IMG/VR virus record: IMGVR_UViG_3300023174_000003 | Location: 15,792 to 79,791 of that record | Length of the DNA: 64,000 nucleotides | Reading direction: 5' to 3' (one strand) | Source: a virus | Shown here: piece after piece, positions 1,591 to 60,385 of the stretch | Layout: each line of letters starts with the position of its first letter | Numbering within the stretch: the stretch's first letter is position 1 | The notes under the pieces: model-generated | Seen by the model: only the letters and a program-made list of their open reading frames with translations | What the model was told of the DNA's origin: nothing | Databases searched by the model: none | Position numbers and translations under genes: made by a program

Positions 1591-2682
1591 ATGACAGGCA
1601 AACTTACGGATGCAGCAAAGTTTTACAAAGGACTTAAACAACAAGATGAAGCATTTAACTACCTCGAATCTATTACACCTACAGATAAATTAGAAGAATT
1701 TTTTATTAAATATCGTAGTGATGCACCAGTAGACACTACCTACATTAATAACTGGGAGGGTGTTGTAACAGCAGCCAAGGTCTCTGGTGCTAAATATCCA
1801 GAGTTAGTTGCAGCGCAATGGGCATTGGAATCAAACTGGGGAAAAGATGTCTCGGGTAAAAACAACTATTTTGGACTTAAAGGAACAGGCTCTGATCGAT
1901 CTACACAAGAATTTGTTAACGGTAGTTGGATCACAATTGTTGATGGGTTTATTGATTTTCCTGACCTACGGACTTGTGTTGCCTACCTTGTTGATAGATG
2001 GTACAGAGACTACAAGACCTACAAAGGTGTTAACAACGCACCAAATCGCAACGCAGCAGCAAATCAACTCAAAGAACAAGGCTATGCCACGGACCCTAAT
2101 TACCCCACAAAGCTCATCCAAATAATGGACAATAAACTTGGTACGCCAGGCGGTAACGTTTCCAAATTAAATCCGTTGCCCGTACTTTACATGAGTCAAC
2201 GGGATAATTATCGTGACGCAAGTAGAACATGTTTTAGTTCCAGTTGTGCAATGATGTTGAAATACCTCAAACCAAAAGCTATTGCTGGTGATAACGACTA
2301 CGTAAAAGTAGTCTTTAGCTATGGTGATAGCACTGATAGCACTGCTCAGTTAAAAACTTTATTTCACTTTGGTGTAGAAGCAAGGTTTAATACCAAGGCA
2401 ACACCTGAATTAATTAAAAAACAAATTGATAACAACAAACCTGTACCCGTAGGTTTCTTGCATCACGGCCCTGTTAATGCACCAAGTGGTAGTGGGCACT
2501 GGCTTTGTATCACCGGATATGATTCCACTGGTTGGTGGGTGAATGATCCATGGGGTGAATGTAATTTAATCTCTGGTACTTACATAAATGAAAATGGTTC
2601 TAAATTGCATTACAGTTATAAAAACTTTAACCCCCGTTGGTTGGTAGATGGACCAGCCTCAGGTTGGTGCATTATTGCTTGA
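1591..2682 (+). CDS. endolysin: glucosaminidase (GH73/FlgJ-like) fused to a C39-like cysteine peptidase
   Basis: AAQWALESNWG, NNYFGLKG and GYATDPNY motifs; C-terminal SQRDN..CFSSSCAM..GHW..VNDPWG. Confidence 0.85.
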   Translation: MTGKLTDAAKFYKGLKQQDEAFNYLESITPTDKLEEFFIKYRSDAPVDTTYINNWEGVVTAAKVSGAKYPELVAAQWALESNWGKDVSGKNNYFGLKGTGSDRSTQEFVNGSWITIVDGFIDFPDLRTCVAYLVDRWYRDYKTYKGVNNAPNRNAAANQLKEQGYATDPNYPTKLIQIMDNKLGTPGGNVSKLNPLPVLYMSQRDNYRDASRTCFSSSCAMMLKYLKPKAIAGDNDYVKVVFSYGDSTDSTAQLKTLFHFGVEARFNTKATPELIKKQIDNNKPVPVGFLHHGPVNAPSGSGHWLCITGYDSTGWWVNDPWGECNLISGTYINENGSKLHYSYKNFNPRWLVDGPASGWCIIA

Positions 2683-3076
2683 TGTAATGAAATAACAAAA
2701 GGTCGTAGTCAACATGCCAATTACTAGCTTCATGCCTGGTAAACCACTTGACATAACTATTAAACTGCTTAATCTTTTCTTTAGATTCACAAGCAAAGAA
2801 TATACTATCACCCAGTGGCAGCTCCTGGATCCATGCCCGTAATTGACGTATGGCAAATCCGTGGGGCAACAATCCGGAAGTACCAGATAGTTGACTTGAT
2901 AATTTCTTTGCCCTTTTATTAGGTCTTTTGTTTAACCAATCATTAAGTTGGCGTTTACTTTTACTGCACCCAAATGAAAATAACCAGATGTAATTTTGAT
3001 CTACTTTTGACCAGGGCACAAGACGTACTTTAAATATTCCCTTGTTTGTCTTACAGGTCTTAACCTTGTATCTCAT
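2672..3076 (-). CDS. hypothetical protein
   Basis: 134-aa ORF, ATGA-coupled to the upstream gene. Confidence 0.6.
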   Translation of the reverse strand: MRYKVKTCKTNKGIFKVRLVPWSKVDQNYIWLFSFGCSKSKRQLNDWLNKRPNKRAKKLSSQLSGTSGLLPHGFAIRQLRAWIQELPLGDSIFFACESKEKIKQFNSYVKWFTRHEASNWHVDYDLLLFHYIKQ

Positions 3077-3996
3077 GAATTTGTAATAAGTGAATCAAAT
3101 AATACAGGTAATGAATCTTCTGGGCTTCTTTCCCGCTTCCACGCAGCTAGCCAATCAGCACGTGAGTGTTCATGAACCGAGTTAAAATCATAAGAATCAG
3201 ATGGTTCAATAATAAAGAAATCACCGCCTGACAAGATGTTTACATCTCCAACAAGCCAGGTAGAGTTATCTGGTACTGTGACAGTAGCACCTGTTCCTAT
3301 TGTAGCAAGTAACAAAGTATAGGCATTAAAACCTGAAGGAATTGTATAATTTGTATTAAATACTGGGCCAATGGTGATTGTATTTGTTTCATCAAACGTA
3401 GTCTCTGTTGCCAAAAAACTATTATCTAAATCTTCTAACAAAAGCAACATTTCCTCGGAAGGAAATTCAACTACAACACCCAAGGTATAGTTAAGTAATT
3501 CATTACGTGTAGTTGATACACATATCAAATAACTTCCTCTTTCTAAGGTGAAGTAAAGATCGTCACCTCTATCTAAACTATTTGGATTAAATGTATTATA
3601 ACGATCAGAAGCCGCCCCCATTACGTGGTCATTGTAAGGGTGATGAGGAATTGAATAACCAAAAGAATCATCAACACTATCTTCTTGGAATATCATCCTC
3701 CCTTGTATGGGCCCTAAGTTCAGGTCATAAGCAGATATTTGAATGTAGTTAGGACGAGGTCCGCCCTTCTTTGTAATTAACCAACAAGGTGTCGTTACAT
3801 CAACCTGGAACCAATGATTGTATGTACCACCACCAATACCACCATTTGAATATTGATTTGTATCAGCACGTCCAACAACTTTAGTTAAAGGTCCAAGGGT
3901 ACCCGTCAGCTCCCGCAAAGAAGTTTGGCTAAACGTACCTAAAACTAAAGGGTTTTTCTGGGTACGTTGACGTTGGGACTGGGATACCCTACTCAT
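3073..3996 (-). CDS. hypothetical protein (beta-rich, possibly virion-associated)
   Basis: 307-aa ORF within a minus-strand operon. Confidence 0.65.
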   Translation of the reverse strand: MSRVSQSQRQRTQKNPLVLGTFSQTSLRELTGTLGPLTKVVGRADTNQYSNGGIGGGTYNHWFQVDVTTPCWLITKKGGPRPNYIQISAYDLNLGPIQGRMIFQEDSVDDSFGYSIPHHPYNDHVMGAASDRYNTFNPNSLDRGDDLYFTLERGSYLICVSTTRNELLNYTLGVVVEFPSEEMLLLLEDLDNSFLATETTFDETNTITIGPVFNTNYTIPSGFNAYTLLLATIGTGATVTVPDNSTWLVGDVNILSGGDFFIIEPSDSYDFNSVHEHSRADWLAAWKRERSPEDSLPVLFDSLITNS

Positions 3997-55054: not shown

Positions 55055-57343
55055 ATGGACGCCAAAGCCCGACTTAAAGAAATTGTTGACTCCTACCTTG
55101 AAAAAGACGGTGGAGCAAATATTGATACGGGCATTGTTGCGTCCCACGTAGCACAGATGAAACTCTTTGGCATCCGCCAAGGGGTAGAATTTTTTCCTGC
55201 TCAAGATAATTTTGGCAATCAACGCAAAGACTTTATAGATCGAGTACTCAAATACAACAGAATGGATACACGCCTGGATTCAATCTGGGAGTATTTCCTT
55301 TGTGATGGTCAAGGTCTGTTTTATATCCGCCCAACTGAATCTAATTACAGGCTTTATTACTTTCGTGAACACGAATATCGCTCCTTCTATGGTGTTGACG
55401 GGGAGCTAGAAGAAGTTGTTATCATCTATAGCTACAAAGTAAGGCAGGGGACAGGCTTTAGTGATGGCATAAGTGTAACAAATATCACAGGATCTTCAAT
55501 TACTGGGCCTCAAGGAGCCAAGCGTTACATTCGTTTGTCAATTAAAGCTAACACAATTGAAGAAACTCACAGTGAAGGAGAGATGTCCTTTGAAATGCCC
55601 AACTATGCAGTACCTGGGCGCACTCAAAGTTTAAAAAATACACTAGGTTTTATACCTTGTGTTGAAATTTTTAACAATCCCAAGGGTTTCTCTAATGAAG
55701 GTGTTGGAGAATTTGATGCATTAGCCAACCATATTGTCACGCACGATGAAATGGTACGCACAATGCGTAAGAATGTGCAGTTTTTTGGTAATCCAACCCT
55801 ACTTTCCTCCAGGCCTAAGACAGATTTGATGGAATCAGGGTCTGACTCTGTGGTACAACGTCCATCTATTGCAGCAAACTCCGGTTTTACCGGGATGGGT
55901 GCGTTAAGCCAGTCAAGATTTAAGTCTGACCCCCTCTCCAGGGGTATGGATGGTCAAATTCGGGTACCAAGGGTGATTGCCAACCTGGAACCCAATGACC
56001 GAGTCGGTTATATTGTTCCAGATGCTATCACTGGTGACCAAAATAACTTTGCCCGCCAGTATCGAGAGGAAATACGTACTGCTCTTGGTGGTGTAGACGA
56101 ACTATCCATTTCTGCAGGCGTAACAGCTACTGAATACAAGTCATTGTTCGGTCGTGTGTCAGCAACATCTAAGAAAAAAGCAAATGCTATTTACACTTAT
56201 GGGATTTCTCGTTGTTTAGAAATTATTATTTACCAAGAAGAACGTTTGTTCCGTGAAACACTAGCCGCAGCTGCAGGAATTGAAAAACCAATAGAGCCTA
56301 CCGAAGAAACTCCTCCTGATGAACGTCGCCTTTATGATGCCGCAATGGAAGGTTTTGAGGAAAAAGTAAAGCAGTTCATGATGGCATGTCTTAAGACACA
56401 ACAAATTCCGCAAGGTGTTCTTGGCCTAGTACCAGATGGCGATATTACAATACAATGGCGTTGGTTAGGACCTGTTTATGAAGATTCAACACAAGATGTT
56501 TTAAACAATTCTATTGTGGTACGTAACCTCCAAGAGTTAGGTGTTGATAGTATTGAAGCACTGAAGTACCTCTTCCCGTCAAAAACGGATGAGGAGCGGG
56601 CCGCGATGTTATCGGGGTTCCCGTTCAGAATGGTGGGTGAATTGCAGAGTGCATACTCTCAATTTGCCAAGTTGGTGGGGGGCATGATGCAGACCCCTCA
56701 TCCACAATCACCAGATTTACCGATGGCCGCAGACCCTCGTCTCGACCTCACACCTTATCTGTATCGCACATTAGAAGCATTACAAAAGGAGATGAGTTAT
56801 GCAGGACGCTACCGTCCAATCGATCCCACAGATGAGCCCAGTACAGGCAGCAGTAGCTCCAAGCAGCTACGTGGCGGTACCGGCTCCTCAAGCTCCGGCA
56901 CCGGCTTACCAGGGACCGATCAATTACCAGGTGGGTACCAGCTACCCCCAAGCGGTTCCTCAGGTGACTACCAGTTACCAATCAAGCCCTACTCAGTACG
57001 CCCCCCAATCCCAACAAGTGGCTCCCCAGAGCAGCCCATGGGAATCGGCGTTCAACAAAGTAGTGGGACTGCTGAGCGCACCAGTCCAATCCCCGTTCCA
57101 GGGTCAACCCTCGGCTCCGACACAACAGTACGCCCCGGCCAATTATGGTCAGGTGCCCAGCGCCCAACCTACGCCCAACTGGGAGACGCAGACCTCGTAT
57201 CCCAACCAGGTATCCTCGCCCAATTATTCCCAAACTTCTTCGAGTCCCTCACTAGCAGAAGTAGCGGATTACCTCAACCTGAGCAACGAAAGCCGTCAGG
57301 TGATCGACGCGTTCGGGGTAGAGGCACCAGCCGTCCTAAATAA
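55055..57343 (+). CDS. portal protein with overlapping C-terminal extension
   Basis: Between terL and scaffold/capsid; NTLGFIPCVEIFN..EFDALANHI pattern typical of portals. Confidence 0.7.
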   Translation: MDAKARLKEIVDSYLEKDGGANIDTGIVASHVAQMKLFGIRQGVEFFPAQDNFGNQRKDFIDRVLKYNRMDTRLDSIWEYFLCDGQGLFYIRPTESNYRLYYFREHEYRSFYGVDGELEEVVIIYSYKVRQGTGFSDGISVTNITGSSITGPQGAKRYIRLSIKANTIEETHSEGEMSFEMPNYAVPGRTQSLKNTLGFIPCVEIFNNPKGFSNEGVGEFDALANHIVTHDEMVRTMRKNVQFFGNPTLLSSRPKTDLMESGSDSVVQRPSIAANSGFTGMGALSQSRFKSDPLSRGMDGQIRVPRVIANLEPNDRVGYIVPDAITGDQNNFARQYREEIRTALGGVDELSISAGVTATEYKSLFGRVSATSKKKANAIYTYGISRCLEIIIYQEERLFRETLAAAAGIEKPIEPTEETPPDERRLYDAAMEGFEEKVKQFMMACLKTQQIPQGVLGLVPDGDITIQWRWLGPVYEDSTQDVLNNSIVVRNLQELGVDSIEALKYLFPSKTDEERAAMLSGFPFRMVGELQSAYSQFAKLVGGMMQTPHPQSPDLPMAADPRLDLTPYLYRTLEALQKEMSYAGRYRPIDPTDEPSTGSSSSKQLRGGTGSSSSGTGLPGTDQLPGGYQLPPSGSSGDYQLPIKPYSVRPPIPTSGSPEQPMGIGVQQSSGTAERTSPIPVPGSTLGSDTTVRPGQLWSGAQRPTYAQLGDADLVSQPGILAQLFPNFFESLTSRSSGLPQPEQRKPSGDRRVRGRGTSRPK

Positions 57344-57767
57344 CTATGCTCTCCAGCTTGAAACAATGCTGGATAGTGCCGTTAACTGGGGCCAAAAAGC
57401 CCAGGATGTTATTACTGGCTATGCTCAATTCAGCGTGAACGAGCATCAAGAGAATCTCGCTTATAACGAAATCCTCACTAACCCTGATGTACTGAGTGAC
57501 TACACCCTGAAGTTCTTCGGTCCAGAAGGTCCTTATCCCGTATATGAAAGTGAGGCTCAATTGGAAACTCCTGGTTATCGCACTGAGCAAGTGAACCCCA
57601 GCTATGGGAACTTCCCTGCTCCCCCCGCTGCTTCTGCTCCTCAACAACCCCAAAACTTCTGGGGTGGTTTTAACGAAGCAATGGCACGTGATCCCCAAAA
57701 TGCTTGGCGCATTCTGAACCAAGCTCAGCCTGGCACTGTTGCAAACAAACTGTTTGTGATGGAGTAA
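56799..57767 (+). CDS. capsid scaffolding-like protein
   Basis: AAGGAG upstream of the ATG; P/Q/S-rich N-terminus plus helical core; upstream of the capsid gene. Confidence 0.65.
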   Translation: MQDATVQSIPQMSPVQAAVAPSSYVAVPAPQAPAPAYQGPINYQVGTSYPQAVPQVTTSYQSSPTQYAPQSQQVAPQSSPWESAFNKVVGLLSAPVQSPFQGQPSAPTQQYAPANYGQVPSAQPTPNWETQTSYPNQVSSPNYSQTSSSPSLAEVADYLNLSNESRQVIDAFGVEAPAVLNNYALQLETMLDSAVNWGQKAQDVITGYAQFSVNEHQENLAYNEILTNPDVLSDYTLKFFGPEGPYPVYESEAQLETPGYRTEQVNPSYGNFPAPPAASAPQQPQNFWGGFNEAMARDPQNAWRILNQAQPGTVANKLFVME

Positions 57768-58296: not shown

Positions 58297-58395
58297 CAGC
58301 TAAATTAATACCTGCTAAACTTTATACAGATAAGACATCTACGTGTCTTTATCTTTCACCGTTAAATTTCTTACGACACCGGAGGATAAAACCAA

Positions 58396-60385
58396 GTGTT
58401 TATTGATAGCTAGTTCAGATCCTGGTAGGTGTGTCCTTTTAGGATTTGGTAAATAGCTACGTGATTACAGTTAAATTTTTTAGCAATCTTTCTATAAGAA
58501 AGGCCTGCTTCTTTAAGCGATTTAATTTGTACCACGTCTGCCGAAGAAAACTTTCTTAAAGATTTTTTCGGTTTCCCTTTACTGGCAAAACCGTTGTTCT
58601 TGTAGCAACCAGTCTCCCAAGCCCTAAGTAAGTTTTCTTGTTTAGTTACGACCTCAAGATTATCAACACAGTTATTACGCTTGTTGTTGTCCTTGTGATC
58701 GACCTGAAGTGAAAAATTATGAATGCCGTGAGACTCAAGGTTTAAATCAAGAAAAGCAACAGCCATTAAGACATGCAAATGAAAGCGTTTTCTTTTTCCA
58801 TTAACAAGAATTGAAACTCTGTCATATGCACTGGTTGAGCTGATTGGAAGAGGTATAAATTCTTCCTTATTGTTTGAGTCAAGTTTTTTCTCAAACGCCC
58901 TGCCCTCCCTGGTCAAGTAAAGGTTACCAAATCCTAATACAAGTTTGGGTTCCATGTTGTTGATAAACAATTTCCCAAACTATAACATACCTCAACTGAA
59001 CGCTCAGCGTTGTCACCTCACCGAGCAATCGATGAGTGAAAACCGGATGAATTCAGGGAAACCCTAACGTAAAGCCGAGGGCAATCCTGAGCCAAGCCAA
59101 TCAAGTTCGTGATTGGAAGGTGCAGAGACTACTGGGGGTAACACGCTCTTGTTACGTAATACCAGATTTAGCGTCCGGCATCCCACGTGGATGAAGAGAT
59201 AGTCCACCCCCTTAAGAGATTAAGGACCAGGAGAACGATTTTCCGAAGATTCTTGGTGCCGAACTGTATCGGCCCCACCCCGCATACATTTGCGAAATGG
59301 CTGTTGAGCCCGTGGTGGTCCATGACTTCACCCGCCAACCTGGCCAAACCGTTCAACTAGATCGCTATAAGTTCTGGGGTACTCCTGGTACTAAGGACAG
59401 CCGCGAACGGATTTCCGATCAAACCATCGGTACCGCCAATAGCCGTAACATCACCAAGGAAAAAGTCCTTGTGGTGCTTAAGGAATACACTGGTCCCGCT
59501 GACCCGTCTGATCCTACCCAACCTTCGACCTTTAAGATTGCACGGGAAACCCTGATTACCGCCCAACGTCTCCTTCTGGATACAGGTAATCTGAATATGT
59601 TCCACCAGTCCATTGGTTCACTGACCCTCTTGGACGACTACCGCCGGTGGCGCGACCGTGTGTTTATTGACGAACTTGCCAAGGCAGAAGCCAATGGTGA
59701 AGCTTCTACCACCCAAGGTGGTTACTACTTCCCTGCTGGTAAGACCAAGAACGCCTCTGGTCAAATTGCTTACACCACTGCTGAGTACGCAGCACAAGTT
59801 CAGCAATTCCACGTTTCAACTGACTTGTTGAACGTTGTTAAGGATCTACGCAAGCGTAACGTTCCTACCTTCTCTGATGGTCTGTATCGTTGCATTTGCG
59901 ATCCTACTTTCATGATGCACCTGCGTCGTGACGCTGACTTCCGTGAAATCGCCCGTTACTCTGGTAACCCTGGTCAAGGCATGTACATGGGTAACCCCAT
60001 GATGCCTAACAACGCTAGCTTCTATCAAGGTCCCCAAGCTGGTCAAGGTTACTTCCTTGCTGGCGAACCTGTGATGCCTACTGGCGTTCAGTTTGAAGGT
60101 GTGAAGTTCTACGAATCAACCAACTTCCCCACCAAGACCATTGCCGCTAGTTTCACTGATAGCCCCTCTTACACCAACCAAGAAGTTGCCCAAGGTTTCT
60201 TCTTTGGTCCCCAAGCAATTGGCGTTGGCGTTGGTGGTCCTAATGCTCAAGTTCTCATTAACAACAATGATGACTTTAGCCGCTTCATCATCTTGATCTG
60301 GCAACTGTATGCTGGTTTTGAAATCCTCAACAAGGACTTTGTTACCAACGGTTACAGTTTTGTCAGCGATGATGGCATTCTTTGA
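58396..60385 (+). CDS. major capsid protein, spliced: exon 1 58396-58407, exon 2 59234-60385 (387 aa)
   Basis: GGAGG RBS, then GTG TTT ATT GAT | AAC GAT TTT CCG gives MFIDNDFPKILGAELYRPHP; body has PGQTVQLDRY..LKEY..FEGVKFYEST..DDFSR, HK97/N4-gp56-like. Confidence 0.85.
58408..59233 (+). mobile_element. group I intron (trnL/IC3-like core) in the major capsid gene
   Basis: 5' exon ends in U and intron ends in G; IGS CGTTGTCA 59008-59015; P AATTCAGGGAAAC, Q AATCCTGAGC, R GTGCAGAGACT, S AAGAGATAGTCC; P3 CCGGATG/CGTCCGG. Confidence 0.92.
58410..58970 (-). CDS. intron-encoded HNH homing endonuclease (antisense) with C-terminal HTH
   Basis: HLHVLMAVAFL..VDHKDNNKRNNCVDNLEVVTKQEN; SYRKIAKKFNCN. Confidence 0.88.
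   Translation of the reverse strand: MFINNMEPKLVLGFGNLYLTREGRAFEKKLDSNNKEEFIPLPISSTSAYDRVSILVNGKRKRFHLHVLMAVAFLDLNLESHGIHNFSLQVDHKDNNKRNNCVDNLEVVTKQENLLRAWETGCYKNNGFASKGKPKKSLRKFSSADVVQIKSLKEAGLSYRKIAKKFNCNHVAIYQILKGHTYQDLN

Follow-up and report, generated by a model that had tools for sequence, protein, structure and literature searches.

Group I introns in phage capsid genes have been described previously. One is located in the capsid gene of the lactococcal phage Tuc2009, as cited by Pope et al. 2013 (PMC3706429). The capsid gene of the mycobacteriophage LittleE (Cluster J) also contains an intron, in which the endonuclease gene 14 lies on the bottom strand; its splicing was demonstrated by reverse transcription polymerase chain reaction (RT-PCR) and N-terminal sequencing (PMC3706429). 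Here, an element of comparable layout was analysed in an uncultivated S-EIV1-like cyanophage, the IMG/VR virus record IMGVR_UViG_3300023174_000003, which has 79,791 bp and direct terminal repeats. The window, i.e. the whole stretch of DNA that was analysed, has 64,000 nucleotides and corresponds to bases 15792-79791 of this record. The major capsid gene is interrupted between codons 4 and 5 by an insert of 826 nucleotides (58408..59233, plus strand). With a probability of about 0.88, this insert is a mobile phage-IA2-type group I intron, which carries an antisense HNH endonuclease gene in the loop of its P1 extension, would be removed by splicing and would spread by homing. Intron-bearing relatives belong to two clades, the second of which was entered via the HNH relative P0080. 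The main features of the locus are as follows.

58381..58386, plus strand: Shine-Dalgarno sequence GGAGGA of the capsid gene (direct reading; kept in first-clade relatives with and without the intron)
58396..58407, plus strand: exon 1, GTG TTT ATT GAT, encoding MFID, the final base being the U of the U.G wobble (intron-less homologues)
58408..59233, plus strand: group I intron, 826 nucleotides, IA2-like, with the terminal G at 59233 (Rfam, insertion relative to intron-less alleles, covariation)
58410..58955, minus strand: predicted HNH homing-endonuclease gene, 181 amino acids, I-HmuI-like, with a C-terminal helix-turn-helix (Pfam, PHROGs, 1U3E)
59234..60385, plus strand: exon 2 of the major capsid gene, 383 codons and stop, HK97 fold (PHROG 1357, structure model, Foldseek)

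Without splicing, the frame that starts at GTG 58396 continues TTT ATT GAT AGC TAG and encodes MFIDS-stop. This agrees with the original prediction for this stretch, and all of its coordinates hold on direct reading. Exon 2 opens with AAC GAT TTT CCG at 59234, in the same frame as ATG 59297, which follows 21 codons on; the interval from the in-frame TAA (59213) to ATG 59297 contains no ATG, GTG or TTG. The closest isolate, and the sole isolate relative, is Synechococcus phage S-EIVl, which shares 86% protein identity across the whole capsid. S-EIVl has an uninterrupted 383-codon open reading frame (ORF) with the same leader upstream, and its GTG TTC ATT GAT ACC GAC TTT CCT encodes MFIDTDFPKILG. 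Because S-EIVl reads straight through, 58408-59233 is a clean insertion between codons 4 and 5. In the intron-less relatives, including S-EIVl, MFID is followed directly by (N/T)DFPKILG across the exact insertion point. The border is ambiguous by one A; the chosen border, with U before and A after the 5' splice site and G before and A after the 3' splice site, is the only option with an exon-final U and an intron-final G, as a group I intron requires. The position after codon 4 and the exact junction had both been proposed, and they are supported by the Rfam match given below and by the intron-less relatives. Alignment with intron-less homologues, one of the checks suggested at that time, confirmed the border in S-EIVl and in at least 59 IMG/VR alleles.

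The 80 closest capsid loci in IMG/VR were surveyed, and all but L015, L018, and L020 were inspected. At least 59 of the 80 have no insert at the site. One of the intron-less loci is L003, whose exon flanks are identical to those of the window and whose capsid is 97% identical. Three loci (L010, L043, and L069) contain an ORF-less intron of 276-277 nucleotides; ten contain an HNH-carrying intron of 821-827 nucleotides; and in another five the intron is present, with its 5' part lost at the contig end. Three alleles thus occur at one site (no intron, ORF-less intron, and intron with HNH gene), which is the pattern expected of a homing element. The two intron forms have their first 20 bases in common, AGCU(G/A)GUUCAG(G/A)UCCUGGUA, and are common again from CAA CUGAAC on. 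Between these common ends, the ORF-less form has an 18-nucleotide hairpin, whereas the other form has about 550 nucleotides with the backwards HNH gene. The last six HNH codons (YQDLN-stop) fall in the shared ribozyme sequence. The HNH stop corresponds to a G-to-A difference between the two forms (AGCUGG vs AGCUAG), and the same TAG stops the unspliced capsid frame. In the ribozyme-core tree, the ORF-less introns are scattered among HNH-bearing cores, and L069 groups with L133 (support 99/88); despite these scattered positions, the ORF-less introns have their own small L1 hairpin in common. Recombination among the capsid-intron alleles is likely; the ORF-less form may be ancestral or may have arisen by loss of the HNH gene.

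The host gene is an HK97-fold major capsid gene. Its ORF matches PHROG 1357 'major head protein' (E 6e-16). The AlphaFold model, for which 35 homologues with identities down to 23% were used, has a predicted local distance difference test (pLDDT) score of 84 and a predicted template modelling (pTM) score of 0.80. In Foldseek, the top PDB matches of this model are without exception capsid proteins of phages (E values as low as 1e-12, probability 1.00); the best of them include cyanophage P-SCSP1u, Pan3, and Ralstonia GP4. Full-length public homologues have 387 amino acids with the N-terminus (M/V)FIDNDFPKILG, which equals the 4 + 383 residues of the two exons here. Public gene calls on intron-bearing contigs have 362-363 amino acids and start with MAVEP (P0165, P0175), which is the truncation by gene callers that had been anticipated. 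Among 58 intron-bearing alleles, the first 22 codons of exon 2 have 25 variable positions, 20 of which are third positions, and only five protein variants. This third-position bias indicates that the stretch is translated, which requires removal of the insert.

The same part of the gene differs in its annotation and leader among relatives. In the S-EIVl GenBank record (L001, KJ410740.1, 3911-5137) the capsid gene is unannotated, and its 383-codon GTG-started ORF lies at L001:3986-5137; the record lists instead an antisense ORF (AHV82227.1) and a 3' fragment (AHV82228.1). Exon 1 of the second clade (L163-L186) has an ATG start without a Shine-Dalgarno sequence (aattaccaacATG), whereas in the first clade a strong GGAGGA precedes a GTG start. 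Both clades have the same four-codon exon, MFID.

The ribozyme was identified by a match to Rfam RF00028 at 58983-59226 on the plus strand (88.7 bits, E 2.5e-21; gathering score 50 bits), which is the only RF00028 match in the whole 79.8-kb genome. The second-clade introns score 82-99 bits against the same family. Structure counts and the shuffle test were based on alignment A3, which contains 58 distinct first-clade introns. Covariation was assessed in 73 sequences, i.e. these 58 and 15 second-clade introns, with the two intron ends aligned separately; the controls were 500 shuffles and structures slid by 1-3 columns. The elements of the fold are as follows.

58404..58410, plus strand: 5' strand of P1, exon UGAU and intron AGC, pairing with 59009-59015 (covariation)
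58413..58418, plus strand: 5' strand of P1a, GUUCAG, pairing with CUGAAC at 58996-59001 and closing the loop that holds the HNH gene (covariation)
59008..59015, plus strand: internal guide sequence CGUU GUCA (CGUUGUCA), consisting of a P10 half and a P1 half (direct reading, 73-sequence alignment)
59017..59225, plus strand: ribozyme core (pairing counts, covariation), with the helices of the next three lines
P2 at 59017-36 (GCAA loop), P3 at 59043-47/59174-78, P4 at 59053-58/59085-90, plus strand
P5 at 59061-65/59078-82, P6 at 59091-93/59119-21, P6a at 59097-103/59110-16 (UUCG loop), plus strand
P7 at 59125-31/59200-05, P7.1-P7.2 at 59132-65, P8 at 59179-93, P9 at 59210-25 (GAGA loop), plus strand

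In A3, 98.4% of the cells are paired. Seventeen pairs are changed on both sides, compared with 3.8 +/- 1.2 in the shuffles, none of which reached the observed value (0/500); the slid structures gave 0-3 two-sided changes. Across the 73 introns of the two clades, compensatory changes were found in P1, P1a, P2, P3, P6, P6a, P7, P8, and P9, and also in a long-range pairing termed PX, which is considered below. The second clade adds compensatory pairs in P3 and P8, and the P3/P7 pseudoknot is thus among the compensated helices. This clade has about 68% identity in the capsid, 61-64% in the HNH protein, and about 69% in the intron; its introns are inserted at the same site and likewise carry the HNH gene in antisense. 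The element is therefore a genuine group I intron.

In P1, exon UGAU (58404-07) pairs with GUCA (59012-15). The U.G wobble at the splice site (58407-59012) is invariant in 73/73 sequences; at the pair 58404-59015, 58 sequences have U-A and 15 have C-G. In the second clade, exon ATT is changed to ATC, which is synonymous, and the guide GUCA to GUCG; this is a compensatory change in P1. In P10, AACG of exon 2 pairs with CGUU (59008-11); none of the 73 sequences lacks P10 or the terminal G at 59233. The proposed guide sequence, with its U-G wobble in P1 and its P10, agrees well with these data. P1a closes a loop of 577 nucleotides, or one of 30 nucleotides in the ORF-less introns; three of its six pairs are compensatory, and it is unpaired in none of the 73 sequences. 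The outer AGC/GCU pairing was rejected as a conserved helix, since it is unpaired in 18/73 sequences and fails in the second clade. More likely, the intron AGC extends P1 by pairing with the invariant GUU of the guide sequence. Of the long helix in the original prediction, the GUUCAG/CUGAAC part is thus retained with its compensatory pairs, and the outer AGC/GCU part is not.

One second-clade contig has a further intron. On the minus strand of L187 (1836-2134), an ORF-less group I intron of about 300 nucleotides (RF00028, 65.7 bits) follows the Phe of VVHDF, at about residue 37 of the capsid; the exon ends with U and the intron with G. L187 also has the HNH intron after codon 4, and two group I introns are therefore found in one capsid gene.

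The subgroup was assigned from the region between P7 and P3. In the IA2 intron of Pf-WMP3, P7.1 and P7.2 lie between P7 and the 3' strand of P3 and are linked by G-U-A (PMC3428280). Here, a hairpin is located between P7 and the 3' strand of P3 (59132-59165), consisting of CUGG/CCAG around GUAAC/GUUAC and followed by a GUAAUA linker. All five pairs of the inner helix of the P7.1/P7.2 region are changed on both sides, and the GUAA(U/C)A linker is kept where the whole hairpin is swapped (L092, L109, L146, and the second clade). According to PMC3428280, such a P7.1/P7.2 hairpin with its GUA linker is the hallmark of IA2, and the intron is IA2-like. A blastn search of the intron against 50,697 phage records gave matches of 72-78% identity over 80-190 nucleotides, the best with 112-167 bits, in terminase genes of Vibrio phages and in Klebsiella and Escherichia jumbo phages. 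Shorter matches (51-67 bits) were found in the psbA intron of S-CBWM1, DNA-polymerase genes of Bacillus phages, and Staphylococcus phages.

Resemblance of the core to the cyanobacterial tRNA-Leu intron, as first proposed, was found only at the level of short strings. The core strings UCAGGGAAACC, GGCAAUCCUGAGCCAAGCC, and GGAAGGUGCAGAGACU are exactly shared with cyanobacterial tRNA-Leu(UAA) IC3 introns, with no shared string longer than 21 nucleotides. A 20-nucleotide hairpin of the form CCCUAACGU.AAG.CGAGGG is also common to both; it forms P8 in the tRNA-Leu introns and P5 in the capsid intron. The P/Q/R/S strings are thus literally similar as parts of a generic core, whereas the architecture is that of phage IA2. 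The tRNA-Leu IC3 introns have no P7.1/P7.2 and no ORF, and their hosts are tRNA genes. Membership of IC3 was rejected, since P7.1/P7.2 are present and nine cyanobacterial tRNA-Leu introns score at most 39 bits, against 112-167 bits for the phage introns. The P5 hairpin at window 59061-59082 (CCCUAACGUAAAGCCGAGGG) is found nearly letter for letter in the tRNA-Leu loci L216, L282, and others; this shared P5/P8 hairpin may be a tetraloop-receptor-like module at a different position.

The minus strand of the intron contains an open frame at 58410-58970, with an ATG at 58955 and an alternative start, TTG, at 58970; its stop codon lies two nucleotides inside the intron. As had been read from the letters, the ORF (58410-58955) is antisense and fills the terminal loop of the P1 extension. 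It matches Pfam HNH_3 (PF13392; 33.5 bits, cut-off 24.8, E 3e-8), HTH_38, and PHROG 59 'HNH endonuclease' (E 1e-28). The only solved relative of the protein is I-HmuI (1U3E, E 3e-6), the nicking enzyme of the SPO1 intron; the HNH domain with the catalytic His and Asn is present, and the stretch VDHKDNNKRNN..NLEVVT..EN aligns with 1U3E. The frame is intact in every allele read. The ratio of nonsynonymous to synonymous substitution rates (dN/dS) is 0.06-0.13 in comparisons with the copy in the window, and synonymous sites are close to saturation; the HNH frame is under purifying selection. Among relatives with at least 78% identity, all 75 complete ones are antisense in the capsid intron, and five others are cut by contig ends. 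The second-clade relatives (61-64% identity) have the same arrangement. HNH relatives in isolate phages have at most about 32% identity. On the 99-kb viral contig L188, a group I intron (core 3260-3589, 60.7 bits) interrupts a terminase-like gene (L188:1731-4725), and the 5' part of the intron carries a 36%-identical HNH relative in sense orientation (2495-3052). The backwards orientation is therefore a property of the capsid element, not of the nuclease family.

A candidate promoter of the HNH gene was proposed in the region of the guide sequence.

58979..59007, minus strand: candidate HNH promoter, with a -35-like CTGAGC (59007-59002), a 17-nucleotide spacer, TG, and a -10 TATAGT (58984-58979) (proposed)

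The window has CTGAGC ... TG T TATAGT, and in most relatives the -35-like hexamer is TTGAGC or TTGACT; this hexamer is complementary to the bases that separate P1a from the guide sequence. Counted in a fixed register on the minus strand of 70 relatives, TAnnnT is kept in 54 and TG in 53, and TAnnnT lies about 14-24 nucleotides before the ATG. The HNH gene probably has its own weak sigma-70-type promoter, which would overlap the complement of the guide-sequence region. The ribozyme and the expression of the nuclease may thus use the same bases on opposite strands.

A long-range helix, PX, might also be formed by the two ends of the intron.

58420..58426, plus strand: 5' strand of the proposed PX, UCCUGGU, pairing with ACCAGGA at 59226-59232 (covariation, RNAfold)

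PX would join intron bases 13-19, one base past P1a, to the seven bases that precede the terminal G. At the pair 58425-59227, 57 of the 73 sequences have G-C and 16 have A-U, and the double change to A-U is also carried by a first-clade intron (L124); the terminal pair is mismatched in three sequences. Unconstrained RNAfold of one ORF-less intron predicts PX. P1a, PX, and P10 might meet in a three-way junction, with A58419, the terminal G, and CAG 59005-07 as linkers. It is possible, though rather doubtful, that PX is real and functional and that this junction, with single-base linkers including the terminal G, acts as a clamp of the 3' splice site, of a kind that group I introns are not known to have. 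If so, it would explain why the HNH gene is tolerated only in the loop beyond PX, and why the last HNH codons are frozen.

The insertion, its exact borders, the conserved and covarying fold, the purifying selection on the HNH gene, and the presence/absence polymorphism are supported directly by these data. The element is suggested to work as follows. On the late capsid transcript, the guide CGUUGUCA would pair with the last four bases of exon 1, placing the U.G wobble at the cut, and would subsequently form P10 with the first four bases of exon 2. The ribozyme would then excise 826 nucleotides and join GTGTTTATTGAT to AACGATTTTCC, so that MFID is followed by NDFPKILG in a capsid protein of 387 amino acids; without splicing, translation would end after five codons. 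By analogy with I-HmuI and I-PfoP3I, the HNH enzyme might nick or cut the intron-less capsid alleles of co-infecting relatives near GTGTTYATTGAT followed by AACGAY. When the cut allele is repaired from an intron-bearing genome, it would acquire both the intron and the nuclease gene. Self-splicing, the activity and target of the nuclease, and the HNH promoter are predicted features of this scheme.

Several points weigh against this interpretation. Splicing is deduced from sequence alone, and P10 and most of PX are invariant, which is consistent with pairing and gives little or no covariation support. The intron and the HNH gene have diverged about in step with the capsid (69% nucleotide identity for 68% amino acid identity), a pattern equally compatible with long vertical descent and with repeated homing. 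No Shine-Dalgarno sequence precedes the HNH gene, and a standard promoter and terminator scan reported no minus-strand promoter for it. The conservation of the -35-like bases is uninformative on the promoter, because these bases are also under ribozyme constraint.

Other explanations of the arrangement were also considered. It might be regulatory: the intron would lie in the ribosome footprint of the start codon, an antisense HNH transcript would pair with 546 nucleotides of the pre-mRNA, and splicing would time or throttle capsid production. The start codon and the 5' splice site are indeed 12 nucleotides apart, the stop of the unspliced frame falls within P1a, the antisense HNH gene has a plausible candidate promoter, and the layout is kept in two clades. 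However, most relatives are intron-less with otherwise the same leader and start region, and there is thus no essential timing role; the ORF-less introns show a ribozyme that, in the absence of the antisense gene, functions or is at least retained. A regulatory function is therefore improbable. The original prediction that the capsid gene is gated by the intron holds only in the trivial sense that the full-length protein needs splicing.

There is also a small chance that the HNH protein serves the phage, either as a packaging-associated nuclease or as a weapon that excludes co-infecting relatives, and is merely housed in the intron. Its gene lies within the head-gene module, and its frame has long been conserved with a dN/dS of about 0.1. 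An intron-encoded HNH enzyme of PhiPA3 is reported to act in phage-phage competition (PMC11620839). On the other hand, the near-identical capsid allele L003 is without the whole insert and ORF-less introns exist, and the HNH protein is therefore dispensable for packaging; the genome ends are direct terminal repeats, not cos, and the closest solved relative is a homing nickase. The packaging role was rejected on the dispensability of the insert and the terminal repeats, and a role in competition would be compatible with homing and no replacement for it. It is very hard to maintain that the intron is a dead relic and that the capsid is made from ATG 59297 without its first 25 residues: this ATG does open a 362-amino-acid frame, which is used by the public calls P0165 and P0175, but no Shine-Dalgarno sequence precedes it, and in intron-less homologues the corresponding Met lies within the protein. 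In intron-bearing alleles, variation in the 21 codons before this ATG is almost confined to third positions. The ribozyme retains its 98.4% pairing and 17 two-sided changes, none of the 73 sequences departs from the U.G wobble, the terminal G, or P10, and their exon-1/guide pair covaries.

Two further observations concern the region upstream of the capsid gene. In the stretch that separates the capsid leader from the gene before it, at window 58330-58353, a perfect 9-bp inverted repeat (GATAAGACA ... TGTCTTATC) is followed by TTTCACC. S-EIVl has a similar hairpin. The repeat may act as a terminator, processing site, or late-promoter element. At window 56799-57767, a Gln/Pro-rich ORF of 322 codons overlaps, in another frame, the last 545 nucleotides of a portal-like gene (55055-57343, 762 codons, PHROG 20475). 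In S-EIVl, only the distal part of the overlapping ORF is annotated.

With the intron recognized, the annotation of the most abundant structural gene of this widespread cyanophage lineage can be corrected, since public calls on intron-bearing alleles lose 25 N-terminal residues. The lineage also provides a natural series at one site (no intron, ORF-less intron, and intron with a backwards HNH gene), with about 150 HNH-bearing examples across two diverged clades. This allele series is convenient for the study of how a nuclease gene settles in a ribozyme loop, and of splicing 12 nucleotides from a start codon. In the full-text literature on S-EIV1 introns and cyanophage capsid group I introns, no description of this element was found.

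The premise that phage introns mostly reside in DNA-metabolism genes or psbA and carry sense-strand endonucleases, from which novelty had been argued, is outdated, since Tuc2009 and LittleE precede this case (PMC3706429). Other known systems share single features with the capsid intron. The DNA-polymerase introns of SPO1 (I-HmuI) and Pf-WMP3 (I-PfoP3I) are phage group I introns that encode HNH nicking enzymes (1U3E; PMC3428280), and that of Pf-WMP3 is likewise of subgroup IA2, with P7.1/P7.2 and a GUA linker (PMC3428280). However, their ORFs are on the sense strand and located elsewhere in the ribozyme (the ORF of Pf-WMP3 starts in P6a), and their hosts are DNA polymerases. According to PMC3073962, which cites Johansen et al. 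2006, the I-DirII gene in the nuclear ribosomal DNA (rDNA) intron of Didymium is an antisense endonuclease gene with its own promoter. That system differs in being eukaryotic and in rDNA, with an RNA polymerase II promoter, a spliceosomal intron, a poly(A) tail, and another nuclease family. LittleE is similar in layout: its major capsid gene, also HK97-like, is interrupted by a group I-type intron of about 820 bp, the endonuclease ORF is on the opposite strand, exon 1 ends with U, the intron ends with G, and an intron-less relative is on hand. The host of this intron is an actinobacteriophage, and its ORF is called HNH in the figure legend and LAGLIDADG-like in the text of PMC3706429. The LittleE intron lies deeper in the gene, past the delta-domain cleavage site, whereas the one described here follows codon 4; splicing was shown experimentally in LittleE and is inferred from sequence here. 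A capsid intron with an antisense endonuclease is thus an already known layout, and the present locus is a clean new example of it, not a new kind of element.

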